Source: Nemertoderma westbladi
Taxonomy: Eukaryota > Animalia > Xenacoelomorpha
NCBI GenBank assembly: GCA_032718475.1
Contig: JAUCBJ010000669.1
Coordinates: forward strand, 1-37,234
DNA length: 37,234 bases
Direction: 5' to 3'
The first letter of the stretch is position 1; each line of letters opens with the position of its first letter. Below the pieces are notes generated by a model that worked only from the letters and a program-made list of their open reading frames with translations, made no database searches and was not told where the DNA came from. Positions 6,314 to 37,234 of the stretch are shown here, piece by piece. A program made the position numbers and the translations under genes.

Positions 6314-6579
6314 GGAGGCACCAACTAACACATACAAAGAGATCAACTACAAAAATGTGATAGAGACAGTCAGATTCGATAATAATCTTTTTCAGTAGAA
6401 TCGCTGGATATCTTCCATATCATACAACCTTATCTTCAATTATTATCATTCATGAATGCCTGATAAATATTATTTGTGCTATTTATTATCTATCTCTTAT
6501 GATATTCATTAGTAGACCGGACCGTGATAAACTACAGCAAATAATTTTTTATAACCGATGTAAATTTAGTTGTTGTTTC

Positions 6580-15178: not shown

Positions 15179-18100
15179 TAGATGAAATGCGTTCTGCAAA
15201 TAAATATAAGTATACCTATAAGAGCAATACTCCAGAAGGTAGCAGAAGGTCTAGTTTTTATACCTCAGATGAGAGTAATTGTGAGGGCACCAATAGTGGT
15301 GGTAGTGCAAAGAGGCATCATCGTAAGGCTAAGGATTCACGCCATAGAGCACCATTAAAAATTCTCCCTGATTGTCCACTCCAAATGAATCCTCATATCA
15401 GCCGTGCTTCCAGTTTTATACATTCAGCCGAAAATATGGTTATCAGCTCTCCTGTTATACAGTCACCCACTGTTTCTACAACTTACTCCTTGGCTGCATG
15501 TCAGCCATCAAAGATTATTCCTAACCATCTTAGTCCTATTCCAACTACTAGTGCTTCTATTCAACAAAAAATAGTTGATCTACAACCTCCTAATGCACCA
15601 TTTGTTACAACAATGCAACAAGAGGAAACAATTCATCTTTCCAGCACCACAATGCCTTCTCGTATACCTCGGGTCTCCTTTGGAGGAGTATCTCCTGTGC
15701 CCCTCAACCCGGAGGTACCTCCATTTGCTCCAAGGAGTTTTCAAACACCAGTGACAGATAATGTTACATTGTCTGAGAATGATAAACTCTCTGTTGAAAA
15801 GGATAAAATCATATACATTCTGCAAGAATCTAACCGCGAAGCACAGAAACTGGATCGTCTACGGGAAGAAACCCTTTCACTAGCAGGTAAACATCGTTTA
15901 CAATTGGAGCAGTTAGAACAACACAGAGTCCAATTGGAGGAGTTGCAACAGGAAATGGTTATCCGCCAAGATTATTTAGCAACTACTCAGCCTCTTGTAT
16001 CTAGGTCACAAGCAGTACATGGTGCAGCAGCCATTCGTAATGCCTCAAAAATAAATAATATTTATCAAGAAGCAGAATGTTCTTCCTTACCAGATGTTAA
16101 TAGTAGTGGCGTGCATAATTACCCTTCCCAAATTTTACGACGTCCTCCATCGAATGATCCCATTAATGAGACTTCTGAGTTGAATTCTATGCTCGCTTCG
16201 CAGAGTTTTTCGAGACAACTTGCGAGGACAGATGCTAGACAAGCACTTATGATGGGAACTATTACCAAATTCAATGGCCAACTTTTAGAATGGATACCTT
16301 TTCTTGACCACTATGAAACTTCTATTAAGGACAGTCTTCTTCCAGCCAATGAAAGGTTGAAGCTTCTTATAGATAGCTTGGATGGTGAGCCAAAGAAATT
16401 AGCAGAAGGGTTTAGGGGTATGCCAAATGGTATAGATAATGCATGGGACATTCTAAAGAGAAGATATGGTAATGAAACAACTTTGGCATCGAGGATTTTT
16501 GATAAGTTGACAGTTCATCGTAAGGTTACAACAGATAATTTAATTGCATATGCTGATGAACTGAGAACCATATGTCGCCAGTTGGATTGGTTGAAGAAAT
16601 CTGATACCTATAATAATCCAATGGTTGTGAGAATGGTTTCAGCGGCACTGCCCACAGGAGGTATAGGTTATCGTTGGGACAAAATTGTACTTTATACACG
16701 TGATAAACATAGACGTGAACCAGTGATGGAGGAATTTCTCGAATTTCTTCAGAAGGAAACTGACTTAACCTTTATTAAGAGAGAGCGTGAACGGTCTTCA
16801 GACAAACATTCAATGGGAAAGGATAAGGTTGCTGACAGACATTCTGTTGGGAAGGATAGAGATAAGAGACAATCTCACAATATTATGCAATTAAATGATA
16901 TACATGAGGAAGGTGAAACAGAAGATGACACAGGTGGACGTGTACAAAATCTTTATAGCAAACCTTCAAAGGGTCAAGCAAAGTTTCCTTTTAAGAAACC
17001 TCAACGTGATTTATCTATAGAAAATAAATCAAAACCAATCAATAATGCAATTGCAAATTACTTGGCTGAAGCATATAGTGACCTTTTGACTGATGTCATA
17101 GATGGTGGAACTCTAGAAGGTTCTTGTTTTAATTCCATTGGTGATAACATAAAAATGAGCAAAGAACCTTGTATTAGATGCAAGAAAGGAGGGCATAGGA
17201 TAACCCTCTGTGATGTTTTCAAAAATGACTCTATTGCAACTAGGCGAGAATTCCTTCGTAAGAATAATTTATGTTTCATATGTTTGCGACCGGGACATTT
17301 TCGTTTAGACTGCAGATCTTCTTTACGATGTTTCAAATGTAAGGGTACTCATAATCTTTTGCTTCATGTCGACAAAACACCCCCAGCACTTGATAGGGTT
17401 CATAAAATATGCGAACTAGTAGAAGAAACAGTTAACAATAGTGATATTATAGATACTGATGAATTTGAGGAAAATGAATTTACTGATGAAGAAACTTGCG
17501 ATTCTCGATATGTATATAAAGCATTGACCTATGAGGAGGATACTAAGATTCATCCAGCAGGTTCAAAGAATCAAGATCGTATAAGAGAGTTTCCAATTCT
17601 GCAGGTTAGAATTAGGGGAACAAGAGGACTAGTGACTGTAAATGCTCTATTAGATAGTGGTAGCTCTCTTTCCTTTATTGACAAAGAGTTAGCTGAACTA
17701 ATTTTTCAAGGGCAAACTAGGAAACCTCTACGGTTAAATCTCTCTGGTGTTATGGATGTATGGAAAACTACAGTACAAACAGGTTATTATGAAGGAGATT
17801 TATTGCCTGCTGACAGGATGCTCAGTGGTATTGTTCCACATGCTAGGTTAGTAGTCATTCCTAACTTCCAAACTAGTCAATCTACACCTTATGATTGGGG
17901 GAATGACAAATTTACACTTCAACATAAGATTCCATATCATGCTGTAGACTATCCAGGTATTAATTTATTAATAGGACAAAACTTGCATGAAGTGTTTGAA
18001 CCCTTGAACAAAATTCCGAGTAATCCATTACCACTTCAAGATTATGCAGTCCTGACACGGTTGGGCTGGTATTGTACTGGGCCCTCAGAACGTACATTAT

Positions 18101-21100
18101 ATGAACGTGGTATCGCAAAGGATCACATAGTTGGTAATTCAGTAGACATTCCCTGTTCTTCCAAAGATGTCTCCGATAGTTCTGATTCGGAAGTTGAATG
18201 GTCCAGTGAGGCACTGCGCTGCACCAATACTGATCCAATTGGCCTGATGCCCGAGGAAGAGATACTTCAATGCCAAACTCATCTATGTAATCTGCTTCAT
18301 GATTCTACCACTCATTTAGATAATCCTTCTACCTGTGAATCTTTAGCACCAATTGAAGAAGCTATTAATAAACTTAGACTTACTGAGAAAGTTATTGCTT
18401 GGCTTGATCAAGACAAACTTGAACATAACGCTAATGCAAAAACCCTGTCTGTGGAAGATGAACGATCACTTCAAATTCAACAAACTACTCGACGATTTAT
18501 CCCTGAAGAAGGGAAATATGAAATTGGGCTCCTATGGCGAGCTCAAGAACCAAACTTAATTAATAACCTTCCCTTGGCTCTAACTCGTGCTCAACAATTA
18601 AAACGTCGATTATTAGCCAACAAAGAAATACACAAGATGTATTCCGATAAAATGAGCCATTATATTTCAAATGGATATATGGAGGAGATTCCTCCTCATA
18701 CTCAAGATACCAACAGAACATATTATTTACCACACCACTTTATTCAACGAGAAGATAAACCAGGATGCATACGAGTTGTTAAAGATGGCGCTGCAATGTA
18801 CAAAGGTCATTCATTAAATACAGAACTTATGTCTGGCCCTAATCTTCTCCGGTCTCTTACAGGAATTTTAATTCGCCTACGCCAATATAATATTGCATTT
18901 GCATCCGATATTAAGGAAATGTTCCTTCAGGTGAAGGCATGTGAAATTGATCGTGATAGTTTAAGGATTCTGTGGTGGCCTGAGGGTAAACTAACTTGCG
19001 AATTGCGCCAATATAGAATGACAATCCAGGCCTTTGGTCTAATATCAAGTCCTTCAAATGCCAGTTTCATACTGCAAAGTACAGCTGATGATAATAAATT
19101 GAAGTTTCCTCCAGGGGTCATTGACAATATAAAGGAAGATTTTTATATGGATGACAATTTGTGTTCTAAACCTACTGTGGAGGAAGCAATTGTTACAGCG
19201 AAAGGCACAATTGAATGTCTGAAATTAGGAGGTTTTAAGCTTACTAAATTTGTAAGTAATTCAAAGGAAATGCTATCCTCTATTCCGAAAGACGACAGGG
19301 CTGCCACTGATATAGATCTTTTTAAAGAGCCTCTGCCTGTTACCAAAACCCTAGGTTTACGATGGAATACTGAGGCAGATCAATTATACTTTCAAGTGAA
19401 GCCACGTGGTGGGGAAGTCAGAACGAAGCGCATTTGTTTAAGTATATTGTCTTCTAACTTTGACCCTCTGGGTTTTATTTGTCCTATTACTCTACGAGCT
19501 AGGCAGTTGGTTCAGAAAATGTGGAAGCTTGATACAAACTGGGACGACCATTTGGATGGGGTCATATTGAAAGAGTGGAAAGCTTGGGAATCGCAATTAC
19601 CAGCTATTGATCAGCTATTAATACCCAGAAAATATTTCTATAATGCTCAACCCCACCATCAATATGCATTACATATGTTTAGTGATGCTAGCACACAGGG
19701 CATGGGTGTTACTGCATACTTTCGCAAGGAGGATGATACTGGTGTCGAAGTATCCTTAGCCTTCGCCAAAGCGAAGCTTAAACATGAGTCATTAGACATT
19801 CCTAAGGCAGAGCTTCAAGCTGCCGTATATTCTGCCATTGTAGCAAATGATCTTATTGAACAAACCAAATATAAACTACATCAAATTGTCTATTGGACGG
19901 ATGCAGCACTGGTTCTGCAATATATAACTAATAGTAAATGTGAGTTTAGTGTCTTTGTCAGAAATCGAAGGCATGTAATTCTGAATACTTCAAAGCCGGA
20001 ACAGTGGCGTTATTGTCCAGGCCCACTGAATCCAGCAGACATTGCATCCCGAGGAGCTACTCCTTTGGAGCTGTTACACACTGAGTCTTGGATTCATGGT
20101 CCAGAATTTCTTCAACAACCTGAAATAAATTGGCCTAAACAACTCAGTCAACAACAAATAGAACAGGCCAAGGGAGCAGAAATAATCAGGCCAAAATCCA
20201 AACCCTCAAAGTCCAAACTTTTACGAAACTCACTTGGCTCCTCAAATAACTATATCATTATTCAGAATACCTTTACTGGTAGTAAACTAGATATTCTAGA
20301 TAAAACATTCTGGACAAATGCACCGGATCTACCTGACCTTTCTTTGGGTGTTTCTCAAAGATTAGAGAATTATTTCAACCATTACAGTTCATGGAACCGC
20401 TTATGTCGTGCAGTAACCTATCTTAGGTTACTCTTCCACTATTGGTACAATCAACGTCAGACACGAAAATTCATGTCTCTGCAAGAAGTAGACTGTACAA
20501 ACTTGAAACTTTTACGTATCACACAAAAACGAGATAACCTTAATGATTATGACAAGTTGCTTACTCATGCAAACCTTATACTTAGCAACCGATACAGTAG
20601 CATAATGAGAGATGGGCTTATTAGAGTCGGTGGGAGATTGACCAATGCTCCTCTTTCATTCGACACTAAATATCCAATTTTAGTGTATGATACAAGAGTG
20701 CAAACAAAAATCATTTCTGATGTTCATAAGTCATTATTGCATGCGGGTCGAGAATATATCCTCAATCAAATACGCACGCGTTATTATTTTGTACACCCTC
20801 GCAAGGCCTTGAATTTTGTACTTAATGAGTGTATTCCATGTAAGAAAATTAACTGTAGACCTATGACACAATTAGAGGCTGCTTTACCACTTGAAAGACT
20901 TGGTAGTTACTCACCCCCATTCACTTTCACAGGTGTCGAACTATTTGGGCCTATTGAAGTAAAAAGGGCTCGTACTTTGGTAAAGAGATGGGGTGTACTG
21001 TTCATTTGTCTGACTTGTCGAGCAGTGCATATTGACATGGTGAACGACCTTAGTATGAATAGTTTTTTATTATGCCTTAGACGGCAAATTGCAAGATATG

Positions 21101-21456
21101 GAACAAGCGAAGTGGTCCGATCAGATAGAGGCACAAACTTTATCGGTTCTTCGAATGAGATCACAAAACTTATAACAGACTGGAATCAACAACAACTTGA
21201 TGATTCTCTCAAAATCAAAGGTTCTGACTGGAAATTTATTCCTAGTCATGCTCCTTGGTATGGAGGAAGCTGGGAACGGCTTATTCGAAGTGTAAAAATC
21301 TCATTGAATCATATATTGCCGTGTAAAGCATACCTTAATGATGAATTACTGAGAACCCTTTTTGAGGAGATTGCATCATACATAAATGGCAGGCCTCTTA
21401 TGCCTGTATCATCCGACCCTCACGCTTTAGAGTCTCTCACACCGCTCACTTCATGA
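15118..21456 (+). CDS. pol: BEL/Pao Gag-Pol: capsid-like (DUF1759), 3 Zn knuckles, aspartic protease, RT, RNase H, integrase
   Basis: KFNGQLLEWIPF; CIRCKKGGHRITLC, CFICLRPGHFRLDC, CFKCKGTHNLLLH; LLDSGS; YMDD (19144-19155); LHMFSDAS; NPADIASRG; H..H..CIPC; SDRGTNF; GGSWERLIRSVK. Confidence 0.97.
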   Translation: MAAKSRLEIRQQQEKTRQKLIDEMRSANKYKYTYKSNTPEGSRRSSFYTSDESNCEGTNSGGSAKRHHRKAKDSRHRAPLKILPDCPLQMNPHISRASSFIHSAENMVISSPVIQSPTVSTTYSLAACQPSKIIPNHLSPIPTTSASIQQKIVDLQPPNAPFVTTMQQEETIHLSSTTMPSRIPRVSFGGVSPVPLNPEVPPFAPRSFQTPVTDNVTLSENDKLSVEKDKIIYILQESNREAQKLDRLREETLSLAGKHRLQLEQLEQHRVQLEELQQEMVIRQDYLATTQPLVSRSQAVHGAAAIRNASKINNIYQEAECSSLPDVNSSGVHNYPSQILRRPPSNDPINETSELNSMLASQSFSRQLARTDARQALMMGTITKFNGQLLEWIPFLDHYETSIKDSLLPANERLKLLIDSLDGEPKKLAEGFRGMPNGIDNAWDILKRRYGNETTLASRIFDKLTVHRKVTTDNLIAYADELRTICRQLDWLKKSDTYNNPMVVRMVSAALPTGGIGYRWDKIVLYTRDKHRREPVMEEFLEFLQKETDLTFIKRERERSSDKHSMGKDKVADRHSVGKDRDKRQSHNIMQLNDIHEEGETEDDTGGRVQNLYSKPSKGQAKFPFKKPQRDLSIENKSKPINNAIANYLAEAYSDLLTDVIDGGTLEGSCFNSIGDNIKMSKEPCIRCKKGGHRITLCDVFKNDSIATRREFLRKNNLCFICLRPGHFRLDCRSSLRCFKCKGTHNLLLHVDKTPPALDRVHKICELVEETVNNSDIIDTDEFEENEFTDEETCDSRYVYKALTYEEDTKIHPAGSKNQDRIREFPILQVRIRGTRGLVTVNALLDSGSSLSFIDKELAELIFQGQTRKPLRLNLSGVMDVWKTTVQTGYYEGDLLPADRMLSGIVPHARLVVIPNFQTSQSTPYDWGNDKFTLQHKIPYHAVDYPGINLLIGQNLHEVFEPLNKIPSNPLPLQDYAVLTRLGWYCTGPSERTLYERGIAKDHIVGNSVDIPCSSKDVSDSSDSEVEWSSEALRCTNTDPIGLMPEEEILQCQTHLCNLLHDSTTHLDNPSTCESLAPIEEAINKLRLTEKVIAWLDQDKLEHNANAKTLSVEDERSLQIQQTTRRFIPEEGKYEIGLLWRAQEPNLINNLPLALTRAQQLKRRLLANKEIHKMYSDKMSHYISNGYMEEIPPHTQDTNRTYYLPHHFIQREDKPGCIRVVKDGAAMYKGHSLNTELMSGPNLLRSLTGILIRLRQYNIAFASDIKEMFLQVKACEIDRDSLRILWWPEGKLTCELRQYRMTIQAFGLISSPSNASFILQSTADDNKLKFPPGVIDNIKEDFYMDDNLCSKPTVEEAIVTAKGTIECLKLGGFKLTKFVSNSKEMLSSIPKDDRAATDIDLFKEPLPVTKTLGLRWNTEADQLYFQVKPRGGEVRTKRICLSILSSNFDPLGFICPITLRARQLVQKMWKLDTNWDDHLDGVILKEWKAWESQLPAIDQLLIPRKYFYNAQPHHQYALHMFSDASTQGMGVTAYFRKEDDTGVEVSLAFAKAKLKHESLDIPKAELQAAVYSAIVANDLIEQTKYKLHQIVYWTDAALVLQYITNSKCEFSVFVRNRRHVILNTSKPEQWRYCPGPLNPADIASRGATPLELLHTESWIHGPEFLQQPEINWPKQLSQQQIEQAKGAEIIRPKSKPSKSKLLRNSLGSSNNYIIIQNTFTGSKLDILDKTFWTNAPDLPDLSLGVSQRLENYFNHYSSWNRLCRAVTYLRLLFHYWYNQRQTRKFMSLQEVDCTNLKLLRITQKRDNLNDYDKLLTHANLILSNRYSSIMRDGLIRVGGRLTNAPLSFDTKYPILVYDTRVQTKIISDVHKSLLHAGREYILNQIRTRYYFVHPRKALNFVLNECIPCKKINCRPMTQLEAALPLERLGSYSPPFTFTGVELFGPIEVKRARTLVKRWGVLFICLTCRAVHIDMVNDLSMNSFLLCLRRQIARYGTSEVVRSDRGTNFIGSSNEITKLITDWNQQQLDDSLKIKGSDWKFIPSHAPWYGGSWERLIRSVKISLNHILPCKAYLNDELLRTLFEEIASYINGRPLMPVSSDPHALESLTPLTS

Positions 21457-21878
21457 TGAAGAAAAAGGTCACCATGATACCCATTAGTGAACCCACTGAT
21501 GGAGATGAGTACCTCCGTCAAACCTGGCGTATAATGCAACTTCTAACAAAGCGCTTCTCAATTCACTTCGAGAAACATTATTTGCCAAGTATTCATTTAC
21601 GCACTAAGTGGTTTGCAGAACAGAGGAATGCACAAGTTGGAGACATGGTACTTCTGGTTGACGACAATCTTCCTCGCAAGTATTGGACTACTGGTCGCAT
21701 TACAAAGGTAATTCTAGGTAAAGATGGAAGGGTGCGTGAAGTAGAAGTTCTTTCTGACCAGGGACAGCACCTCAACAGAGCTATTGGTAGATTATGTCTA
21801 TTGGAACGAGCCCGTGAGCCCTCTGGGAACTATGGACAACAACCAAATAAACCTGAAATTATCGAATATACTCAATAA
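21453..21878 (+). CDS. Integrase C-terminal domain (DUF5641-like), split off by a 1-nt frameshift
   Basis: RTKWFAEQRNAQVGDMVLLVDDNLPRKYWTTGRITKVILGKDGRVREVEV is the typical BEL C-terminus. Adding 1 nt near 21444 restores LTPAHFMM. Confidence 0.9.
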   Translation: MMKKKVTMIPISEPTDGDEYLRQTWRIMQLLTKRFSIHFEKHYLPSIHLRTKWFAEQRNAQVGDMVLLVDDNLPRKYWTTGRITKVILGKDGRVREVEVLSDQGQHLNRAIGRLCLLERAREPSGNYGQQPNKPEIIEYTQ

Positions 21879-23797: not shown

Positions 23798-24741
23798 TGT
23801 TGGTGAAACTCGCCTATATTTAGTTTATCTGTTATAGGCCCTATTCAGTATCTTAAATATCTTTATAAGCTCTCATTAGTTTATATTACCTAGCCTGATT
23901 TCACCAAATGATTATGTTCCCCTATTACGGTGCAGTGAATTCATTACTATTATTATTAATAACTTGATATATTCTGCCGTCCTAAGGCAAATCCATGAGG
24001 GCCATATTGGTGGTTGGTTAGGTTATTGAAACGTAATTTATATTGTGCGCTTTCTTTCTTTCTCATATTCTGCTTATTGTAGAAGATTCAGCTGTAACAA
24101 CCATATGGCAGTTAATGAGATTTACAGCTTTCTGACGCTGTGATTGGTTGAATTTCTAGGGCAATCGCAGCTGCTGTACTTGTGTATAGGACATACCTAT
24201 TTGTTATGTGGTATATAAGGCCTTGGTTTAATATTGAGCGGTGATTATTAATTTATCCCTCACCGTAACGCGATAGAGTTGCTATAGGAAAGCAATAAAA
24301 TTAAGTTCAAATAGTGCTAAATTTAATAGTTATGTATGCAGTATTTATAAATCATTAATTATTAACTATATAATAAGTTTGATATATACGGTATATACTG
24401 TAATCTGCATTGAAAGTAATATATGAAGAAAGATATAACACAAGACGTTGTTCAACGATTAAAGGGAAACAAGGGGAGCTATTTGCCGCACACGGTGAGT
24501 GTCAAGCCATTTGTTCTCTGCCCTTTATTGCCAGTGCACTGTGTGTGATTGACAGCCCTTTGTGTCCGATAGTTGTCCGGTTCAATTATATTCCGGGCAC
24601 CATAATCTACACATACACTTCATATATTCATTAAGCCTATTAAAGTACTAATTAATTAGCGTATTGCAACTCAACGTAAAAATACCATCGCTCCGTGACA
24701 AATATCGCGTTGTGAGTTAGAAAAAGTCAGCGGCGCGAACA
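23798..24741 (+). repeat. 3' LTR (944 bp)
   Basis: TGTTGGTGAA...GCGCGAACA, followed by TSD AATCT. Confidence 0.97.
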
Positions 24742-24957
24742 AATCTTGACGACGAGTCCTGTGTTACTCGCTCTTCCATGTACCATATTGGAGGCTGCTC
24801 ACTTACTTATAGGAGAGGCCTGTTGAGGTGGTTGGAATGCATATAAATGCTACCAAGGCGGAATTATTGACATTTAATGTTAACTTTTGTTGGGATGGGC
24901 CCAGTGAGATCGGCCCACAACAACTGTAGGGCCGTAAGCTGACAGTATCTGACAGAG

Positions 24958-25923
24958 TATTTCCTTAGAAACTTATTTTATGCTACTTTTGTTAGGTGGA
25001 TATGATGACTATGTAGGATGCATGGAAATGTAATAAAATGTCTCTCTGGAATTTTTATCTTGTATGTTGCCAAGGTAACCGGGTGCAAAGTTCAAACTTT
25101 GCGGGCCTGTATTTCAAGGCGACAATGGATTCTTCCCTTGAGATTTGGTATATGAGTAAAGGGAATAAAAGTCTTTCAAAATATTTTACATTTGAATTTG
25201 TTTACATTCCCGTTGCCATGGAAATAAGTAGAATGAACAATTTTAATAATTGTCTACTAATTCTATAAAACACCATTTTTATTCGGTTTGTCAGTCTAAA
25301 TAATAAGTTAAAATTGCCAACATTTTATTTTATAATTCGTCAATTGTGAATCATATTTATAAAAGTCAATATTTGCAAATAAACTAAACTGTCCAATCAG
25401 AGAGCAAGACCTGTTATAGCATGATTTTGACATTCCAGAATATTAAATTTCGGTTAGCAATTATGAGAAATAAAGGACAGCCACCAGGCATGTTTGTTGA
25501 AAATTATATAAGTAGTAAATAGTAGCCGAATTTCAATCTGGCGGTCATAATGGGGAATTATCGTAATTCCCGTCACCATAGAAACGGGATTGAAAAATAA
25601 ATTAAATGTAAAATAATTTGATAGACTTTTATTCCCTTTACTCATATACCAAATCTCAAGAACAGAATCCCTTGTCGTTTTGAATTGCAGGCGCTCGAAA
25701 TTTGAACTTTGACCCGTTTACCTTGGCAACTACAAGATAAAAATTCCAGAAAGACATTTTATTACATTGCTATGAATCCTAGTCATCATATCCACCTAAC
25801 CAAAGTTGCATAAGAGAGGTTTCTAAGAAAATATTATGAAAATAGTGTCATAAATAGGGAAACGATCGGCCTCCGTTAATTTCAGGAATCTGCTCGCTGC
25901 ATGACCTGTTATTTAGTACACCT
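24958..25923. mobile_element. Older fold-back MITE, left end truncated
   Basis: Diverged inverted arms ~24958-25222 and ~25577-25833. Absent from duplicate copy 1. The right end ...AGTACACC|TTGA is Kolobok-like but uncertain. Confidence 0.7.
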
Positions 25924-26634
25924 TGATTTAAGGTCATGGTTTACAATACGTATAAATAATATTTAAATTGCCACTTTAAATTTCATTTAAGGCGCAGGTT
26001 GCAGGTTAGAAAAGGAGCAGGTTACAGAGGCGTTTTGAGAGAACCAAAACAATAATTGAAAGTTACCACACATGTGTTTGGTATAGGTCTTTATTCTTTG
26101 GTCTTGGTTTTGTACTCACCCTACCCATGTACTCACACTACTCACCCCTACCCATGCCCCCTCCAACAGCCCACACCATCACAGCCTGGCCCCATCTCTA
26201 ATGTACACAACATCCCATACTGACCTCGAATTATACATGAGCATCCGCAATCCTTCAGAACCTACTAACCCAAACTTGAGTAATCTTAATAATCAACCAA
26301 CCAGCTGTAATTCATATAATATTAACAACTGCCCTTCCCATCTTCATTCTTCAATACAAGGATGACCTTTAATCACCCACCAATACTTGCTATTGAGGCA
26401 CCCCGAGTGTCGAGCCATCCACTAATATCTCCCTTAGTGGAATCGGGATTAGAGGTTGATCATCCCCTCTGGAGCCACACCAAACTCCTTATTTTAATTA
26501 AACTGTTCTTTTGTTATCATCTAAAATTATATTTTGTAAATATTACTGTTAATCTTCTGTCTCTTACGTTAGCTACGATTGCCTAGTTTTATTAGCTAAC
26601 TAAATCCTATACAAATTATAATTATTATTTTTAG

Positions 26635-26879
26635 CGCCTTTTAAGCTGCCAAATTATCCGTCATGTCCTATTAAGATTCCTGGGGAAGATCACCGGTACA
26701 AGTGTCCGGTTCAGTGGTGTGATCGTCGATACTCACGATCCGATGGACTCATCCAACATTATCGAAAACATTGGAGATATAAAGAATACGAATGTCATAT
26801 CTGCAAGAAGGATTTCAGTTATTTAAATTATTTACGCAGACATGTACTCAGTCAACACACAGGCGAAAAACAATTCCAG
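26635..26879 (+). CDS. EGR-like C2H2 exon (fingers 1-2), copy 2
   Basis: Same 245-bp exon and splice sites as 5128-5372. Confidence 0.85.
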
Positions 26880-27349
26880 GTTAGAAAATAAAGTTTTATC
26901 TTATTCTAAAACACTTCTAAAATTTAAACTAAAAGTGAAATATCATAATATAAAATCTCAAATATTTCTATCATATTTTTCTGACAATGTGTTGCTGTAT
27001 GACTAAATACTGAGACTAAATTGTCAGTAAATAAATTATAAATTGTCTCTTTCCTTCATTTTGCTTTATATATATGATCAGAATTTGAATGGTTTATTTG
27101 ATTTTATTAATATTATCACTGCTACATTTAATTATTTATGTGTTGTTCAATCTGTGTTGGCAGTGTGTGTCATGTACGACCAGCTTTGCGATATATAGAA
27201 CAACTTTAAAGGCATACTGGACAAGGAAAAAAAAACAACTTTGGAGAATCGCGAAGACTGGAAGGATCTCTGGAAGTCTGGGGTCTCTCGATATAGTAGT
27301 GGTAATATATAACTACTGTAATATATATTCCATGATATTATTGTTTTAG

Positions 27350-27817
27350 TGCGAAACATGTGGAGCTAAGTTTCTGTTATTTTCCGAGAAAAAACGACAT
27401 ATGATACTGGGCACATGTGAACAACCGGTATCCCTGCCAACAGCTGAACCATCACTATCCCTGCCAACAGCTTTCACATTAAGTTGTGGCGGTTTACACA
27501 GTCATTCCGGTACAAATAATGGATTAGGAGTGGGTGCTGGCAGTTTACAAAGTACCTCACGAATGGATGCAGGAGAGCAGCCATCATACAATTGTGATAC
27601 TTGTGGGGAGGGACTTTCAAGCCAAGGCGACCTAACGAGACACAAACGGATGATACATAGGGGAAAGAAGCCATCATACAATTGTGATACTTGTGGGAAG
27701 GGATTTTTAAGCCAAGGCCACCTAACGAGACACAAATGGAAGATACATACGGGAAATAAGCCATCATACAAATGTGAAATCGAGCATTCGTACTGCATTC
27801 AACCCAAGGCAGTGTAA
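27350..27817 (+). CDS. ZF last exon, copy 2
   Basis: As 5846-6313, with a few substitutions (for example SQGDLTRH versus SQGHLTRH). Confidence 0.8.
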   Translation, partial: CETCGAKFLLFSEKKRHMILGTCEQPVSLPTAEPSLSLPTAFTLSCGGLHSHSGTNNGLGVGAGSLQSTSRMDAGEQPSYNCDTCGEGLSSQGDLTRHKRMIHRGKKPSYNCDTCGKGFLSQGHLTRHKWKIHTGNKPSYKCEIEHSYCIQPKAV

Positions 27818-28195
27818 GGAGGCACCAACTAACACATACAAAGAGAAGTTATACTTTTAGCAATCAAAGTAGTATTATGTATAATAATTAATTAAAATAA
27901 GTTGTTATACTTCCAGCCAGTACAGCAGTATTGAAGCAGTATTGTTTTATGCATATAACTCCGTAGCCAGATAAATGTATCCAAAATTAATTTACAACAT
28001 TAATAAATTAAATTACCTTGTTAATGCGTCGAAAAAATCAATATAAATTTATTTTGCGGCTATATATACGTACATCACTTTAACAAGGGCCAATGCAAGG
28101 GTCCAGAATTCCACAAAATTTCTTTATCTAAACGTTATCTAAAATCGCTATCTAAATCGTTAGCTAAATCGTCATCTAAACAATGGGACGAGTTA

Positions 28196-28455
28196 TCCCA
28201 GATAGCATTTTGGATATCAGTCATTGATATCCAAAATGCCCAAATTGATATCCAAATATGTCACTGACAGTGACATATTGCCAGGACATCCTCACTGCGA
28301 TGTTCCATGATGTCCAAATGTGAGTCCCCAGGACATCCCAGAGATATTCCCATATTTATATTTGAGGATATAACCGAGACATCCCCAGGAAGTCCCTGAC
28401 ATTGTTATATGAGGTTATACAACAATATAACCTTTTCATCATGTTCCACTGGAGA
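28196..28455. mobile_element. CCCAGATAGCA putative MITE, copy 2
   Basis: Homologous to 764-1023. Confidence 0.5.
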
Positions 28456-28614
28456 GAAATGGGTGATTCGGCGGAACTTGGCCTACTACAAAATCTGGGA
28501 AGTTGAGATGTAGGCCGATATAGTAAATCAAGTTTCTATCAAAAAGTAAATACATAAAAATTGTTGCCTTCGGGTCCCAAACCATATCGGGTCCCCTATC
28601 CTTCAGCAAATTAA

Positions 28615-30499
28615 CACTAGAACAGCTGAGATTTCGGTAAACCTAGAAAGGCTATGACGGTCAAATTTGACCGGTTCTAAAATTCATTGTCAATGTACAG
28701 TTTAGTAAAAATTTATTTACTACTGTACATTGTAGTTACATTTTAGTGTTATGTTATATTATTATATTATATTATATTTTATTATAATAATAATTTATAT
28801 ATAATATAATAAAATATAGTAATATAACAGAAAATTCACCTATAGGAATTTATTTATTTATTGTAGCACAAAAAAAGTTAATTTATGAACACTGCACACA
28901 TACGGCTTTAGCAAATTTTTCAATTTCAATTAGACAGGTGGTATTTAGGCATAGAACATTTCAAGCATATAATATTGGTTTTGTTATTACACCCGGATGT
29001 CCGACATTCACGCCGCTTCTTGGTAATTTGTACAACGTTGTTAAGTGGTGAAATAACAGTTTCTAGATTTGAATTATCTCTGTATGTATCTTTGTGTGTA
29101 TGTATGGCTCCTTCAAACAATCGACCAACACAAATATGAAATTACGTCTTGACATCTTAGCATTAGTAACGTTATTATAAACAAGATGGGCGTTAATTAG
29201 ACAAATATCAAGTATGTTGCCCCAGACAGCCATTGGCCATCATCTCATGGCACATTTAGTAGTATAGAGCCGGGACATCTGATCAAAAATGTTCCCTCCA
29301 CATTTTTGAGAGTTATAATACATGATAATTTCTGGTTTTTTCTTTTCTGTGGCTGTGACAGTTGGAGCTTCATGAAAAGTAGATAGAAGCAATACGTTTT
29401 TGTTTAGTTTTCGTCGATAAGAGACAACAACTGATGTACTATCAGGATCATGAAAGAAAGTACTATCGAAGACATTTCCTCCACTACAATCGAGCATCTT
29501 GGGCAGAGTTCTCTCCGTTTTTTATGCATTGTACCAACTATAGATGTTTTCTTATCATACAACCTCTTATCTAGTTGGAGTGACGTGAAAAAATTATCTG
29601 TTGTCAGATTATATCCTCTGTTGAGGTGATCTGCCATTAGTCGCATAACTACATCTTACCCCAATAGACCATCACGGGTTTCTGATTCTTGTTATCCCAG
29701 ATATGGCAATATTCTAACGACGTATTTAGATTCTAGATCAACCAAAACCCAAAATTTGATGCCATATTTATCCGGTTTATTAGGCATAAATGTTATTAGA
29801 TTACACCTCCCCTTGAAGTGTAATAATTGTTCATCAATCGTTAGTGAATATTATGGGATATATTTGCTCAAACAGTTTTCCACAAACTTGTCGAACTCCT
29901 CTCTTATATGAGTGAACTTATCAGTAGCAAAATGACTCATTATTTTACTCTTATCATCAAACCGAAAACATCGTTTTATTAGGCGGAATCGGTCTCGCGA
30001 CATTGTATTTGGGAATATCTTGATTCCTACATCTTTATTCCATAGGGAATCTAGAGGAATGTGTTTACCATAAACTTCGCGAATATATTTTAAACCAATA
30101 TGTGCCTCTAGCTCAGTTACAGTGAATTGAAGGTCTATTTCCAAATTATCGTGCGCAAATTTATTTGTGTAATCCGTTATAAGTCTAAGAATCGGTTCAG
30201 ATATGAACTCTTTCCAAGCTGAATAAATATCAGTTATACGATTTCTCACATATGGTTTGGTTCCTATACGTTCGCTAAAAACATTTCTTGCTGGTCGACG
30301 ACCAGCAGTACTGGTATGTGGAGTTCCAGTTTCAAGATTAAACCAACGAGTCCCATCTTTACCCATCATTTCAGCCAGTTCAAAAAGGTCACCATCATCG
30401 GAACCGGAAATACCGGTACCGGTATCGTCTTCATCGAGATCAGAGCTATCATAACTTAGGTTGTCGGAATCAAAATTTCTAGTCTCTCCATCCGAACAT
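28615..30499 (-). mobile_element. Decayed piggyBac transposon (transposase pseudogene plus one end)
   Basis: MSRDRFRLIKRCFRFDD, TIDEQL, PNKPDKYGIKFW, TTDNFFTS, YNSQKCGGNIFDQM (third Asp changed to Asn), and a Cys-rich C-terminus. Multiple stops and frameshifts. TTAA|CACTAG end at 28611-28620 with a GGTCAAATTTGACC palindrome. Confidence 0.9.
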
Positions 30500-30816
30500 C
30501 CAATGCCATTGTACTTCATGGCAGTGTCTTCATGACAAATCCAATGTTCTTGGATGCAGATGATGTCGATGTTATATTCCATTGCCAGAGCGACCATGTC
30601 ACCCTGTTTGGTATGTGCTTTCAGCGTGCGTGCGTTCATTGTAGCAATCTTTAGTGTCTTTTTACATTTCAACAGGTTGGTTCTTCTTTCTTCTCGGTCT
30701 TCTGTTCCAGTAGCCAATTTATCGACCCCAGCCTGGTGTACCACTGGGGGACGCAGTCCTTGTTGACCCGGGCGACGACCGAGCCGGTATTTCTCCTGGA
30801 GGGTTCTCATACTCAT
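29851..30816 (-). CDS. Chimeric ORF: RTE-like AP-endonuclease N-terminus fused to piggyBac transposase N-half
   Basis: First ~106 aa contain LKIATMNARTL...IDIICIQEH (APE motifs I-II). The remainder is an acidic region plus GKDGTRW...MSRDRF of piggyBac. Confidence 0.75.
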   Translation of the reverse strand: MSMRTLQEKYRLGRRPGQQGLRPPVVHQAGVDKLATGTEDREERRTNLLKCKKTLKIATMNARTLKAHTKQGDMVALAMEYNIDIICIQEHWICHEDTAMKYNGIGCSDGETRNFDSDNLSYDSSDLDEDDTGTGISGSDDGDLFELAEMMGKDGTRWFNLETGTPHTSTAGRRPARNVFSERIGTKPYVRNRITDIYSAWKEFISEPILRLITDYTNKFAHDNLEIDLQFTVTELEAHIGLKYIREVYGKHIPLDSLWNKDVGIKIFPNTMSRDRFRLIKRCFRFDDKSKIMSHFATDKFTHIREEFDKFVENCLSKYIP

Positions 30817-31310
30817 ATCTTTCAGCTGTGGGAGTAAACCGCTTGTGGTCGCAACTCCTACAAGCGTCTTCGCAGTAGATCGCCGTTGGTTGATTACCTT
30901 CCGCCGACCTTGTCAGCATGTCTAGCCGTTGGTTGATTACCTTCCGCCTATCCATGGCCTACAGCCCTGCTGCCGACTGTAGGGGTCCTTTTGTTACACC
31001 CTGAACCAAGTGTGCCTCCTGGGTTAGGTTACCTAACACTGGTAGAGGAGCATCCAGTATAGACAGGGCGGGGCGTGTATAATCTCTAATGCAGATGCTT
31101 TGCCTTCAATGGTGCCCTAGGCGCTATAGCCCTCAATGACTTATTTAGATGATGGGGCTGAACCAACCCACTCTTGATCAACTAAATAATGAATAGGCTA
31201 TGCTTATCGGGCCTGCCCTACTGGGCTGGCAGCTACAGGTAGTACCACATTACTGCCATCGTGGTAGCAGGATCTGGGGACCTGACCTGAGCTCGCTCGA
31301 CCTAGTTGTA
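30500..31310 (-). mobile_element. 5' portion (UTR plus ORF start) of an RTE-like LINE
   Basis: APE start as above. GC-richer UTR with a ~24-bp direct repeat GCCGTTGGTTGATTACCTTCCGCC (~30882 and ~30925). The upstream boundary is approximate. Confidence 0.7.
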
Positions 31311-31679
31311 GTAATATATAACTTCTTATAACTATTAATTCTATAACTATAATATTCTTTATGTTAAAATGTATTCTGAATCTGATTAACACACTCTGAA
31401 GGCCATTCTCCCAAGTATAACTGAGATATTTAACGTTTCAAAACTACATATATGCCAGTTTTAAAACAACCTATATGCGACATAATTCCATTATTTTCAA
31501 ACACAATGTGTTTTTTTTAATTCAAATCACATAAGATCACCAATATGTCAAAACCCATTTAAATTTATTCAAAAACAAAATTTAAATCAAAAATGCCATT
31601 TTACAGGAAAAGTTAATTTTGCCATTTGGGTTGTTTGAAATTGAAAGGGACGATATATTCCATGATATTATTGTTTTAG

Positions 31680-32024
31680 TGTGAAACATGTGGGGCTAAG
31701 TTTCAGCGATGTTCCGACAAAAAACGACATTTCAAATTGCATTCGGAATACAAGCCAAAGAAAGAAGGTTCACCAGGAGGTTCCCTCCCCATGGATATGA
31801 TACCGGTCACATGTGAATTACCGGTATCCCAGCCAACAGCTGAACCACCACCACTATCCCTGCCAACAGCTTTCACATTGAGTACTGGCGGTTTACAAAG
31901 TAGTTTCGGTACAAATAATGGATTAGGAGTGTTGGCAGTTTACAAAGTACCTCACGAATAGTTACAGGAGAGCAGCCATCATACAATAGAGCATTCGTAC
32001 TTCATACAACCCAAGGCAGTGTAA
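31680..32024 (+). pseudogene. ZF last exon, copy 3 (intact EGR-like finger 3, extra fingers deleted)
   Basis: Acceptor at 31679, then CETCGAKFQRCSDKKRHFKLHSEYKPKKEG... A frameshift near 31930, and the 90-bp finger repeats are missing. Confidence 0.8.
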
Positions 32025-32655
32025 AGAGGCACCAACTAACACATACAAAAAGATCAACTACAAAAATGTGATAGTGACAGTCAGATTCGATAATAATCTT
32101 TTTCAGTAGAATCACAGGATATCTTCCATATCATACAACCTTATCTTAAATTATTATCATTCATGCATGCATGATAAATATTATTTGTGCTATTTGTTAT
32201 CTCTCTCTTCTGATATACATTAGTATGACCATGATAAACTACAGCAAATGAGTTTTTTATAACCTATGTAAATGTGGTTGTTTGTCCGTCTCTCTGTCGT
32301 ACTTATGACCAGACCATACCTTTTGAATATTCACTTAAACATTATCAACAATAAGTAATGTATTTGTAAGAATCGATTCATGATTCAAAGTGCTGTTCAG
32401 TGTTCACTATTGTCTCTACTGCACTATCTCGTTAGAAACTGACCGGTATTCAGTATAATGTTGTAACTGGAGTATTGATGTACTGCCTTATATACAATTA
32501 TTCTGGGCTGGTAAACCCTCTTCATTATTCGTCCTACTTCGCAGCTGATTACAATTATCTAAACGGCTAAGCATGGGAATAACGAAGTTGTACTTTCCTT
32601 TGAGTGATTAGTTGGCCTAAATATGATATCCCACTCCATAGTGAAATCTTCATCC

Positions 32656-32739
32656 GATCTGGTAGCTCAGTACACAGACCCGGCTGATGATAACCGGAAG
32701 TTTGAAACCTAGGTACCGGGTTCGAGCCCCAACAGGGTC
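32656..32739 (+). ncRNA. tRNA-derived Pol III cassette, unit 1 (not a functional tRNA)
   Basis: Acceptor-like GATCTGG/CAGGGTC, A-box-like TAGCTCAGT, B-box GGTTCGAGCCC, and a T5 terminator ~8 nt downstream. The 3' half resembles tRNA-Asn. Confidence 0.7.
32678..32721 (+). ncRNA. Minimal type-I hammerhead ribozyme motif, unit 1
   Basis: Stem I ACCCGG/CCGGGT; CUGAUGA (32684-32690); stem II AAC/GUU closed by U.U; GAAA (32704-32707); palindromic stem III ACCUAGGU; GUA cleavage triplet (32713-32715). Confidence 0.6.
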
Positions 32740-33016
32740 GGTTGATATTTTTCGCTATGGAGAGCATTATCATTGTATTATCTACGTTATATATTTAATT
32801 CACCGTCACTCACCCCACAACAATTCATTTATTATTATTAATTAACAGCCTGGGCCAGGCATACGGGGTTACAGTGGTTTCTACAACACTGTATCATAGT
32901 TATTCTTTGAGGCATGGTTGCCATTTCTGGCAGAGCACGGGAATAACGTTGTACTTTCCTTTGAGTGATTAGTTGGCCTATATATGATATCCCACTCCAT
33001 AGTGAAATCTTCATCC

Positions 33017-33100
33017 GATCTGGTAGCTCAGTACACACACCCGGCTGATGATAACCGGAAGTTTGAAACTTAGGTACCGGGATCGAGCCTCAACAGGGTC
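33017..33100 (+). ncRNA. tRNA-derived cassette with hammerhead motif, unit 2
   Basis: CCCGG CTGATGA (33045) TAACCGGAAGTTT GAAA CTTAGGTA CCGGG. The core is conserved, stem III has a C>U change that keeps a U-G wobble, and the B-box is mutated (GGATCGAGCC). Confidence 0.55.
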
Positions 33101-33181
33101 GGTTGATATTTTTCGCTATGGAGAGCATTATCATACTGTCCTATCTACGATATATAATTATCTAAACAATTGGACGAGTTT

Positions 33182-33911
33182 TCCCAGATAGTATTTTGGA
33201 TATCAGTCACTGATATCCAAAATGCTCAAAATGATATCCAAATATGTCACTGACAGTGACATATTGCCAGGACATCCTCTCTGGGATGTTCCATGATGTC
33301 AAAATGTGAGTCCCGAGGATGGATCTAGGACACTTCCCCCCCGGACAGTTCCCCCTGGATACTTCCCCCCCGCCCAAGTAGGACACTTCCCCCCGGACAT
33401 TTCCCCCCCGGACACTTGCCCCCCGGACCAGTTAAAGTGTTAAAATTAATCTGGGTGCATCAAAGCAATAAACAAAAGTTAAAGATACTTACAGGACAAG
33501 TTGTATCTAGACAAGTTTTTATAAAATTATAAAAGAAACATTTTTATTGTCAAATTTTGTTTGTTTTTCTTCCCCCCCCGGACACTTGCCCCCCGGACCA
33601 GTTAAAGTGTTAAAATTAATCTGGGTGCATCAAAGCAATAAACAAAAGTTAAAGATACTTACAGGACAAGTTGTATCTAGACAAGTTTTTATAAAATTAT
33701 AAAAGAAACATTTTTATAGTCAAATTTTGTTTGTTTTTCTTTTAATTGGGGGCTGCCGCCCCCAAACCCCCGCTTCTTTTGTTGGGGGCTGCCGCCCCAA
33801 AATTCCCACATTTATATTTGAGGATATAACTGAGACATCCCCAGGAAGTCCCCGACATTGTTATGTGAGGTTATACAACAATATAACCTTTTCATCAGGT
33901 TCCACTGGAGA
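33182..33911. mobile_element. CCCAGATAGCA putative MITE, copy 3 (interrupted)
   Basis: Homologous to 764-1023; split by 33321-33803. Confidence 0.5.
33321..33803 (+). mobile_element. Truncated left part of the MULE-like MITE
   Basis: Starts GGATCTAGGACACTTCCCCCC as at 34936. Contains a 170-bp internal tandem duplication (~33401-33740). Confidence 0.75.
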
Positions 33912-34212
33912 GTAATGCGTAATTCGGCGGAACTTAGCCTTCTACAAAAACTGGGGTGTAGGCCGATATAGTAAACCAAGTTTCTATCACAATGTATTTA
34001 CAAAAAGATTGCGGCCTTTGGGTCCCGAACCATAATAAAGAGGTAATAACAAAACTCCTTCGATCTGTTCTTCGAGTTGGCTGCCTCAGTTCACTAAATT
34101 TAGAGATAGAAAGTAATAAAATAAAGAGAGAAAACATCATGTTCTTAACTTTTTTCTACAATTTCTAAGTGTGAAAAAGTGTATGTGTTTCATGAAATTA
34201 CTAGATAACATA

Positions 34213-36439
34213 CTAGAGACGGGCCTAGCGGCCCGTAAAGCAAGTCGTATGAAACAGTACGAGTCAAGTAAAAGCTTTTTGTTCTGTCTGATAATAAATT
34301 AGTGTGAGGGTAGTCCCGGTGGTGTACGAGAAATTTTCTAGACAACTTCAAACTATAATTATTATGTTGTAATCATCTAATGAATTATAAAAGCTGTTGT
34401 GATTATAGAAGATAGAGAGTGGTTAGCGATAAGTGATAGAGCTATCGGATAGAGTAGTCAGAAAGGAGTCGATTGATTAATAATAATAGCAGCAGTTGTC
34501 ATGAATTCAATCTTATTTTTGTAATAAATAAAACAAGTTGAGACGTTTCAATGTAAACCGCGATTAACAATTTACAGAGTTCAATGTAAACCACGATATT
34601 AATTAAATACAACAATTATATTATTATTATAACAGATTTTTATATTTCAAACTACAATTAGCCGTATCGAGAATCATTATGAGGCTGAGTAAACATTCAG
34701 CCTTATAAGCATACAGCCTCCACAGTATTAATGTTGGCACAAAGATTTCAAAATGAAACAATAATTAGATGAGTGCACAGTACAATCAATAGTAGCCAAC
34801 ACAGACTGTCTAACTAACAGTCATTTAGCTTGCACACCAATTAATTAACATAGCTGAGAGAGCAACCTTGTAGTTTTTCCCATAGGATGCATTGGGAAGA
34901 GTTATTCAGCTGAGATTGTAATAGCCAGCTAAACAGGATCTAGGACACTTCCCCCCCCGGACACTTCCCCACAGGACACTTCCCCCCCGCCCAAGTAGGA
35001 CACTTCCTCCCGGACACTTCCCCCCGGACACTATCTTGTTGTATCTAGACAAGTTTTTTCAAAATTATAAAAGAAACATTTTTATAGTCAAATTTTGTTT
35101 GTTTTTCTTTTAATTCCTTTATTTCTTTTAATTGGGGGCTGCCGCCCCCAAACCCCCCCCTGCTTCTTTTGTTGGGGGCTCCCGCCCCCAAACCCCCGCT
35201 TCTTTTATTGGGAGTTATCGCCCCCAGACCCCGGCATTTCCCTGAGTGCCCGTGGTGAAAGACTTAAGACCACTTTGAAATAATTAATTCATGTTTGTAT
35301 CATCAGATAATAAATTGACTAAGCCTAAAGTAGGAGCTGTATTGAATGTTAACCAATTTAATATATAAATTACTACAATATTATATAATTCAACAAAATC
35401 CTATTAAAAATATTGCAAGTAACCAGGAAATTTAATATGTAGTGTGTATAATATCTATATAGTATGTATAGTAGTAATATATATATCAATATGTAATGCT
35501 GAACACAGAATACAGGTCGACGCATGTCGATTTTACCCTGGAGAGGTATAATTTTGATTGCAACAATAATATTCATCCCCATCTGCTACAATTTGAAGAA
35601 GACTATTACATAATAATACCTATAATTAAAACAATTAATTATTATAATTCTATAGTTAATAAAAACAGTATATCATTCCGGGGATGGAATTTATAGGTCA
35701 TCTAATATAATTAATTGTTTAAAGATTAGCAAACAATACGATGTAATTGCATTGATAAAACCCATAAATAAAACTTGGATATAAAATGTAAAATCGGGAT
35801 GCAAAAGATCACTTTCTGAGCTACGAAAGGAAAATTGGATACAACTTATCTGGATACAAGCGGTCCGTTTACCTTACAAAATGAAAAATACGAATGTGCG
35901 AAGTTAAGAACAGTCGGGGGGGAAGTGTCCGCGGGGGGGAAGTGTCTGGGGGGGAAGTGTCCGGGGGGGAAGTGTCCTACTTGAGGGGAGGGGAACTGTC
36001 CGGGGGGGAAGTGTCCGGGGGGGGGGGGGGGAAGTGTCCGAACACCAGCTAAACCAGTTAATGTTTGCTTACTGTTTGGGTTGTAGTAGGGTTGTAATAC
36101 TTGGCACAGAAAGTACTTCTTAGTTAGTTGGCCCTTCCTATTGAATGCATTACCAGGCCATCTCTATACATTTTTCATGATTGCCAGCTGGTGTTTTTAT
36201 CATTGCGCCTATGGCAATTTTCGGATTTTGGGGCAATTTTTCGAAATAAAACAAGTTGAGATGTTTCAATTTAAACCGCGATTTCACAAGTACCCATTGA
36301 AATCTATTGTCATGGTCCATGCAAAATTTCATCAAAATCGTTAGAGCCGTTTTTGCTCTAGGTCAGTAGCCAGTAGTAGCCAGTAGCAGTCAGTAGCTTT
36401 TTTTCTTACAGTAATCAAGTCTGACGACTTGCTAACTAA
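34213..36439 (-). mobile_element. Non-autonomous Helitron/Helentron-type element
   Basis: Minus-strand 3' end has hairpin ACGGGCC/GGCCCGT followed by CTAG. Subterminal inverted repeat AGCAAGTCGT (34239-34248) / ACGACTTGCT (36424-36433), an AAATTTCATCAAAATCG motif and a CAGTAG microsatellite. Inserted at A|T with no TSD relative to the empty site near 1247. Confidence 0.8.
34936..36046. mobile_element. MULE-like MITE with (GGACACTTCCCCCC)n inverted subterminal arrays
   Basis: GG...CC termini, arrays at 34943-35031 and ~35915-36040 in opposite orientation, and an 8-9-bp TSD AGCTAAAC(A/C) at 34927 and 36047. Confidence 0.8.
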
Positions 36440-36794: not shown

Positions 36795-36817
36795 ATATAT
36801 GGTGGCTGAATTCGGCC

Positions 36818-37234
36818 AAAATTAATTATATTATGGAAACACGTTTTTGGTCTGTTGGTGATGTTGTAAAATTAATTATATTATGAAAAAACGTTTTTGG
36901 ATGAACTTGCAAAATTAATTATATTATGAAAACACGTTTTTGGTTGAACTGGCAAAATTAATTATATTATGAAAACACGTTTTTGGATGAACTTGCAAAA
37001 TTCATTATATTATGAAAACACGTTTTTGGATGAACTTACAAAATTAATTATATTATGAAATCACGTTTTTTGGTTGAACTGGCAAAATTAATTATATGAT
37101 GAAAACACGTTTTTGGATGAACTTGCAAAATTAATTATATTATGAAAACACGTTTTTGGATGAACTTACAAAATTAATTATATTATGAAAACACGTTTTT
37201 GGTTGAACTTACAAAATTAATTATATTATGAAAA
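36818..37234. repeat. 43-bp tandem repeat (about 9-10 units, runs off the window)
   Basis: Consensus AAAATTAATTATATTATGAAAACACGTTTTTGGATGAACTTGC, contiguous with no spacers. Confidence 0.93.

Follow-up and report, generated by a model that had tools for sequence, protein, structure and literature searches.

The window analysed here, 37,234 nucleotides of contig JAUCBJ010000669.1 from Nemertoderma westbladi, contains a real, conserved and mobile cassette in which a type I hammerhead motif lies between the A and B boxes of a tRNA-like frame of the kind read by RNA polymerase III (Pol III). The cassette belongs to an insertion with a target-site duplication that is built of tandem 361-bp units carrying both motifs; its family reaches high abundance, and the ribozyme is conserved across that family. 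On balance, the element is probably a non-LTR retrozyme, likely transcribed by Pol III from the nested frame, predicted to be cut in pairs into 361-nt units that would be circularised, and likely reinserted by a Penelope-type enzyme.

Structure of the insertion and its empty site

A retrotransposed tandem unit had been placed at 32565..33155 by a first-pass annotation made from the letters alone, and these coordinates proved exact. The insert measures 591 bp (32565-33155), corresponding to 1.6 head-to-tail units of 361 bp, with motifs spaced 361 bp apart between the two units; it is bounded by a 12-bp duplication and has an empty paralog in the same window.

32553..32564, plus strand: left copy of the target-site duplication (12 bp, AT-rich), also present singly, with one mismatch, at the empty paralog (738-749)
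32565..32795, plus strand: unit 1, 5'-truncated (231 bp), retaining 91 bp upstream of the tRNA frame, the entire frame and the terminator
32796..33155, plus strand: unit 2, full (360 bp), with an AC-rich stretch at its start and reading frames without a protein family
33156..33167, plus strand: right copy of the target-site duplication (12 bp)

C2H2 zinc-finger segments that are 91-98% alike recur at about 100-1070, 4556-6570, 26068-28550 and 31650-34000, and the insert sits in one of these paralogs, so that another supplies the empty site. At this paralogous site (523-901), which is without the insert, the 12-mer occurs once and 361 of 380 columns match the joined flanks.

Over their overlap, the two units differ in 18 of 233 columns, of which ten are substitutions and one is an end column, the rest belonging to three short indels. 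Several of the differing letters are private or in the minority among family members, and both copies share the minority letters C32733, A32657, T32738 and A32676; shared minority letters combined with private differences are consistent with one template having been copied in a single event, the copies decaying afterwards. The GC content of the insert unit is 42%, no run of four A was found in the insert, and none of the four reading frames of at least 55 aa that lie over it has a Pfam match. The insert ends 79 nt past the second predicted cut, where many family contigs also exit into AT-rich flanks; those leaving at 33144 into AT-rich sequence number 25, 19 and 25 in three runs.

The hammerhead motif

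The complete type I hammerhead that had been reported between the A and B boxes was recovered in both units by a type I descriptor, which detects these two sites only in the 37-kb window and fires in 1 of 300 shuffles. By itself, the loose pattern CTGATGA...GAAA...TA is weak, as its four matches are equalled by 4 of 100 shuffles.

32677..32722, plus strand: type I hammerhead motif, copy 1, predicted cut after 32715
33040..33081, plus strand: type I hammerhead motif, copy 2, with a helix I of 5 bp and a predicted cut after 33076

Copy 1 consists of a 7-bp helix I (32677-32683/32716-32722), the core elements CUGAUGA (32684-32690) and GAAA (32704-32707), a helix II (32691-32703) with a U.U base followed by 3 bp, and an 8-nt palindrome (32707-32714) that gives a helix III of 2 bp; each hammerhead has a GUA cut site. 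The palindromic stem III described earlier is exact in copy 1 but has one change in copy 2 (33070), which still forms a G.U pair in the dimer. An Rfam search, proposed beforehand as a check, did return a hammerhead as the best match, although a weak one: in a 131-base stretch, HH9 scored 16.4 bits (E=0.086) against a gathering score of 52, and no match over the window reached the gathering score.

The hammerhead helices alone amount to -7.9 and -5.5 kcal/mol in the two units and are not the minimum-energy fold. It had been suspected that the U.U pair closing stem II leaves these copies weak or dead. Death does not follow from this pair, since the axolotl hammerhead HHR_Amex2, which also has U.U, reaches 22% cleavage within one hour as a monomer, and its dimer does better (PMC7229834). 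Weakness is another matter: judged from the modelled structures, these two copies may be weak ribozymes, but the family probably is not.

The tRNA-like frame and putative Pol III signals

The cassette had also been called tRNA-shaped, a description that fits the boxes and the acceptor stem, which lie in register, but not the D arm, in which the A box lacks the D-loop GG and no D stem exists.

32656..32740, plus strand: tRNA-like frame of copy 1, without CCA
32663..32671, plus strand: A-box-like motif, with the D-loop GG absent in these copies
32719..32729, plus strand: exact B box, overlapping the 3' strand of hammerhead helix I
32748..32752, plus strand: T5 run resembling a Pol III terminator, 8 nt past the discriminator and the only run of at least four T per unit on this strand
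32979..32984, plus strand: TATA-like hexamer, 38-33 nt upstream of tRNA position 1

The acceptor strands (32656-32662/32733-32739, 7 bp) form six of seven pairs, two of them G.U, and stand in tRNA register with both boxes. The B box at 32719 is the sole exact one in the window, with the A box 56 nt upstream, and such a pair of boxes arises in 1 of 300 shuffles; the B box of copy 2 has two changes (33082, 33090). The spacer between the boxes is 46 nt long, i.e., 10-12 nt longer than the 34-36 nt of tRNAs, the reference being 117 tRNAs in 120 loci with identical box letters and of ten isotypes. A tRNA covariance model ranked 32656-32741 highest in the window (14 bits, rough E=0.044), a score from a biased model, as most of its 39 training tRNAs had been retrieved by this very B-box motif. 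No tRNA was found by ARAGORN, and no Rfam tRNA match was obtained at E values up to 10. The TATA-like hexamer has one change in copy 1 (32620) and is weak evidence given the AT-rich DNA. Scarcity of T runs was considered as a mark of Pol III read-through and rejected, such runs being no rarer than expected by chance (P(<=1)=0.31).

As a functional tRNA gene the frame does not qualify: it has no D stem, a T stem of 3 bp and 10-12 extra bases, and without a D stem and with so short a T stem no full cloverleaf can form. The earlier proposal that ribozyme and cloverleaf folds are mutually exclusive holds for the T arm and the anticodon-like hairpin, both of which compete with helix I, but not for the acceptor stem, which can form together with the hammerhead and closes its fold.

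Before 32672 and 33033, 7-21 contigs per run depart from the family sequence as loose ends in which the A box is followed by GG and about nine more bases, in a noisy consensus (agreement 0.45-0.65). These ends suggest a longer sister form (by about 9 nt) that would possess the D-loop GG and a fuller D arm.

Predicted folding of monomers, dimers and circles

For copy 1, the active monomer fold costs 8.1 kcal/mol relative to the minimum; the gap is about 7 kcal/mol when majority letters are used and 2.7 when the letters are those typical of run X5. Helix I is lengthened in the best active fold by base pairing between segments of the A and B boxes. Loop II is polymorphic at 32696, with G and A each accounting for about half of the family depth; with G32696, a hairpin can form in competition with helix I (in copy 1 at a pair probability of 0.93), and A abolishes it.

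Isolated cores favour a dimer fold (-28.6 kcal/mol) over two free monomers (-21.6 kcal/mol), so that the dimer action expected of a hammerhead with a palindromic helix III appears likely on these models. The minimum of the two-core cofold is not the active fold, and in the real tandem the dimer fold lies 15 kcal/mol above the minimum. Cutting at both predicted sites would release the following RNA:

32716..33076, plus strand: predicted cut-to-cut monomer, 361 nt, with the B box first and the A box and hammerhead core last

As a circle, this monomer folds at -97.3 kcal/mol (z=-3.4), with 60% of its bases paired and 0 of 60 shuffles as low, and the hammerhead is not formed in the best circle fold. 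The 103-nt cassette folds little better than shuffles (z=-1.4 and -2.1).

Abundance and variation of the family

Public DNA runs place the unit in an abundant family. In runs X1-X3, depth over the whole unit reaches 1e4-3e5, compared with about 70 in the flanks; depths and shares from the runs are summed contig depth, and thus neither copy number nor counts of copies. Contigs span the unit junction, and joints to the opposite strand are common (9 of the 10 listed). Run X6, which comes from another organism and is only guessed to be RNA, yielded two partial contigs of 90-95% identity, which are not evidence of expression.

Variation was tabulated from 704, 567 and 57 contigs of runs X1, X2 and X5, respectively, a site being counted as variable at 2% or more; contigs strongly divergent from the window align less well, which biases these tables toward conservation. 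The 86-nt cassette has 15 variable sites, all of them outside the 27 positions that make up the core and helices I and III (P=0.002); for the core alone the count is 0 of 11 (P=0.10). Common changes in the ribozyme occur at tolerant places, namely N7 (32688), loop II (32696) and the base of helix II (32691), where U.U is replaced by A-U in an abundant contig from run X5. The first-pass annotation had named a core lost from most family members, and hence a private indel accident, as fatal to its reading; in the alignment of run contigs, most of the family keeps the core.

The acceptor pair 32657/32738 changes from A-U to G-C with matching shares at its two positions (61/59% in X1 and 56/60% in X2), figures that do not show linkage, and a T>G change at 32738 that makes up 15-22% of depth breaks the pair. 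The box positions are not significantly spared, with 2 of 13 variable (P=0.6); the nine common variants hit none of the 13 fixed box positions, a comparison of low power (P=0.21). In the T5 run, no variant reached 2% among family contigs.

Proposed mechanism of propagation

Under the retrozyme reading, Pol III would begin just upstream of the tRNA frame and occasionally read through the T5 run. This run implies that most Pol III transcripts stop at about 100 nt, so that unit-length RNA needs either read-through or transcription by Pol II from outside; as a guess, the short Pol III transcripts might act as dimer partners. Two hammerheads would then pair via the 8-nt palindrome and cut, and a host ligase would circularise the 361-nt monomer. 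A reverse transcriptase would use an AT-rich nick to start some 70-80 nt past the cut and would go round the template more than once. Because the predicted cut lies between the boxes, a linear monomer would have the B box first and the A box last, and in a copy made from it both promoter and ribozyme would be broken; an intact new copy would consequently need a circle or an uncut or multi-unit RNA. The present insert spans both predicted cuts, and its template was thus a circle or an uncut multimer.

By analogy, the fixed internal 3' end, the AT-rich target and the nearby AC-rich stretch resemble the Penelope element of the anole, and a LINE enzyme might also have served. The anole element primes inside its own RNA and inserts at AT-rich targets, and in vitro its insertion does not need hammerhead cleavage, uncut RNA being the main template (PMC11167929). 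Within the window itself, no Penelope frame was found.

These observations bear directly on an unlikely alternative, in which a Penelope element carries the unit as a SINE-like passenger or has shed it as a terminal repeat, the template being linear multi-unit RNA that stays uncut, with cleavage and circles as side products. The use of uncut RNA by the anole element (PMC11167929) would accord with it, as would the 3' end fixed within the unit, the partial-tandem layout, the AT-rich target, the AC-rich stretch past the end and the inverted joints. The ribozyme argues otherwise, as it is a canonical retrozyme hammerhead (helix I of 5-7 bp, short helix II and palindromic helix III of 2 bp) and not the minimal build. 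Moreover, the whole 361-bp unit stands at high depth with contigs traversing its junction, the circle fold beats all 60 shuffles, and the unit has no reading frame that matches a family.

The part assigned to Pol III in the retrozyme reading meets a different challenge, namely that the tRNA boxes are relics or structural parts of the RNA and that transcription comes from Pol II read-through of neighbours, e.g., the host zinc-finger repeat. We regard this as quite improbable. An A box without GG, the absent D stem, the two changes in the B box of copy 2 and the lack of significant conservation at box positions all suit decayed signals; the T5 run would stop unit-length Pol III RNA, and the pairing between A and B boxes that extends helix I in the best active fold would give the boxes a structural role. 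Conversely, the B box of copy 1 is exact and unique in the window, the TATA-like hexamer and the T5 run are placed as in a tRNA gene, and the loose ends hint at a sister form with a fuller A box; the nine common variants also leave the fixed box positions intact, at the low power given above.

Origin of the nested ribozyme

The first-pass annotation had further proposed that two insertions into a tRNA-Asn template made the core, and this claim is not supported. Random hammerheads of identical geometry, scored by their best match to 82 tRNA middles, served as the null, and the best tRNA match was reached by 19 of 400 nulls for copy 1, 106 of 400 with majority letters and 36 of 400 for the common A32696 allele. 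The best isotype was Asn for copy 1 and Arg for the A32696 allele, and G32677, which favours the Asn fit, is nearly private to copy 1. With a wider panel of 118 tRNAs, a subsample without the best-scoring Asn, the corresponding counts were 76, 152 and 38 of 300, and a local test of the match gave 16 of 300. The Asn set alone gave 1, 9 and 34 of 400, as a set picked post hoc with the motif of the first-pass annotation. The tRNA panel is bacterial, phage and giant-viral, the host's own tRNAs being absent from it. Since matches to tRNA-Asn are at chance level against random hammerheads when majority letters are used, and the covariance model prefers another register, tRNA-Asn was rejected as a proven template.

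In the register of the covariance model, 32700-32706 (GUUUGAA) is the anticodon loop, the extra bases fall in the D arm, and no long T-stem insertion is required. A copy of the Schistosoma Sm-alpha type has GUUUGAA 15 nt before the T loop, compared with 14 nt here (PMC8490949), a match made by eye, post hoc and to one decayed copy. In PMC2770079, Sm-alpha copies are called as tRNA-Gln-TTG. A Gln(TTG) template is likewise not proven: the best ungapped match is 12 of 18, with a mean of 8.8, among 101 Gln segments that were themselves retrieved with the loop motif.

An origin of the ribozyme in place from a tRNA, either by two insertions (Asn) or by one D-arm expansion of a Gln(TTG)-type head, is compatible with the retrozyme reading and seems doubtful to us. 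Asn as the top isotype for copy 1 speaks for the first route; the covariance register, in which GUUUGAA becomes the anticodon loop and no long T-stem insertion remains, speaks for the second, as does the sharing of this heptamer with an Sm-alpha-type copy, Sm-alpha copies being called as tRNA-Gln-TTG. Both routes are weakened by the majority letters, with which no isotype exceeds random hammerheads of equal geometry, and by box letters that are identical in ten isotypes. The two registers are incompatible and fit roughly equally well, and the GAA of GUUUGAA is dictated by the hammerhead; a longer sister form with GG would mean that the Asn model needs a third insertion. Alternatively, a ready-made hammerhead module may have replaced the middle of the tRNA. 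It is a tentative and rather unlikely proposal that the hammerhead arose within a tRNA gene that had been captured, with GAAA, helix III and the cut site derived from the anticodon and variable loops; self-cutting would then split the Pol III promoter, and a circle alone would restore the gene. If so, a natural birth of a catalytic RNA could be dated here, and the family with its sister forms would preserve the record of how a ribozyme recently emerged from tRNA in nature.

Relatives in other collections and the surrounding window

Matches to a search pattern joining a hammerhead to a B box numbered 4 in viral and 119 in metagenome sequences (44 of 64 parts scanned); none is homologous to the insert. 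One metagenome contig (OFEO01002458.1) is the only pattern match that resembles a true hammerhead, and its sequence is unrelated to the insert. Within the first 60 bases of its minus strand is a clean type I hammerhead in which helix III is palindromic and helix I enters a B-box-like motif; this hammerhead meets the contig end, and no acceptor stem is seen. The pattern of A box plus hammerhead had nine viral matches, which by eye are without hammerhead helices. A family-specific pattern found nothing in GTDB genomes, and blastn against phage records likewise gave no match.

The window is repeat-rich, with about 28-44% GC per kilobase. A Pao-type LTR retrotransposon on the plus strand (13919-21878) has frames of 419, 2118 and 170 aa with Peptidase_A17, DUF1759, integrase zinc finger and DUF5641 domains. 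Broken remnants of a DDE_Tnp_1_7 transposase, which we take to be piggyBac-type, occupy 28929-30912 on the minus strand, where the start of the longest frame resembles by eye a LINE endonuclease fragment. A palindrome of about 1.1 kb (9976-11102, within 9658-11406) has flanks that are contiguous and 100% identical at 23798-24411, which suggests a foldback insertion of recent date; the window has further long inverted repeats at 2344-3271 and 24953-25838. Arrays of 14-15-bp C/G-rich units at 33326-33428, 34936-35032 and 35901-36039 are inverted and about 2.6 kb apart, like the ends of DNA transposons. Further tandem repeats comprise a 170-bp duplication at 33400-33741 and a 43-bp satellite at 36808-37234 that runs past the window end.

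Comparison with known systems

In a tRNA-derived SINE, the tRNA head comes first and a tail of A-rich or simple-repeat sequence comes last. The insert has boxes in tRNA register, but neither a start at the tRNA head nor an A-rich tail. With tRNA-derived SINEs and tRNA-bearing TRIMs such as Helenus it shares a captured tRNA frame as internal promoter in a non-coding retroelement (PMC10886601); unlike them, it starts 91 bp upstream of the frame, is tandem, lacks an A-rich tail and LTRs, and contains a ribozyme inside the frame.

Penelope-like elements resemble it in their partial-tandem layout, fixed internal 3' end, AT-rich target and dimer-favouring palindromic helix III, as described in PMC4209133 and PMC11167929. 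Their minimal hammerhead, according to the former, has a helix II of 7-8 bp, an extra nucleotide before helix II, G10.1-C11.1 and little or no helix III, whereas here helix II has 3-4 bp, U.U or A-U replaces G10.1-C11.1, and helix III has 2 bp. The 361-bp unit also differs from these elements in having no reverse-transcriptase or GIY-YIG frame.

Animal non-LTR retrozymes offer a closer likeness: according to PMC7229834 and bioRxiv 10.64898/2026.07.22.740005, they consist of tandem units of 150-450 bp with one type I hammerhead each, GC below 50%, a target duplication longer than 4 bp and no coding frame. A working rule of the latter source asks for a complete type I hammerhead in at least two consecutive units and a fold below -5 kcal/mol. 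Every retrozyme feature that sequence can reveal is found here, i.e., a 361-bp tandem, a hammerhead in both units, no frame, 42% GC and a 12-bp duplication. Retrozymes are further marked by self-cleavage as monomer or dimer, by linear and circular RNA of unit length in vivo and by an autonomous Penelope partner in the same genome; here the folding models favour the dimer over the monomer, neither being the minimum, and the window contains no such partner. A helix III of 2 bp and U.U at the base of helix II also occur in the axolotl HHR_Amex2 (PMC7229834). In the available portions of the same two sources, a tRNA-type promoter is not described for animal non-LTR retrozymes. How such retrozymes are transcribed and whether circles are the true copying templates are open points, according to PMC7761336 and PMC7229834. 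The nested layout puts both questions into one 100-base cassette, in which the boxes can be mutated separately from the catalytic core, and a cut between the boxes predicts that linear monomers yield dead copies and circles yield live ones.

Engineered Pol III cassettes exist in which a tRNA gene carries a hammerhead between its A and B boxes. Compared with these constructs, which cut other RNAs in trans, the nested hammerhead described here is natural, mobile and predicted to cut itself. In the literature covered, which is partial and includes few subscription papers, no natural element with a hammerhead between A and B boxes is described, and in 12 supplements of PMC4918200 the motifs sought were absent, save for one unrelated plant match.

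The closest likeness is found among parasitic flatworms. The alpha repeats of Schistosoma (Sm-alpha and Sj-alpha) are tandem or dispersed repeats of about 330-360 bp in which a tRNA-type Pol III head is combined with a type I hammerhead (PMC6765202). The available descriptions also have their propagation take more than one unit, and GUUUGAA stands at the would-be anticodon loop (PMC8490949), the sequences having been compared by eye at these letters. Sm-alpha has its hammerhead behind the promoter (PMC6765202, PMC8490949) and contains a recognisable full tRNA (PMC4918200). In the 361-bp unit, by contrast, the hammerhead lies between the boxes and overlaps the B box, the cloverleaf is destroyed and the predicted cut splits the promoter. 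Hence, although the element works like Sm-alpha, it is classed apart, since Sm-alpha has the promoter-first order and the full tRNA. Schistosome repeats that unite a promoter with a hammerhead have been known since 1998; the combination of both in one repeat is thus established, and the novel part is their nested order.
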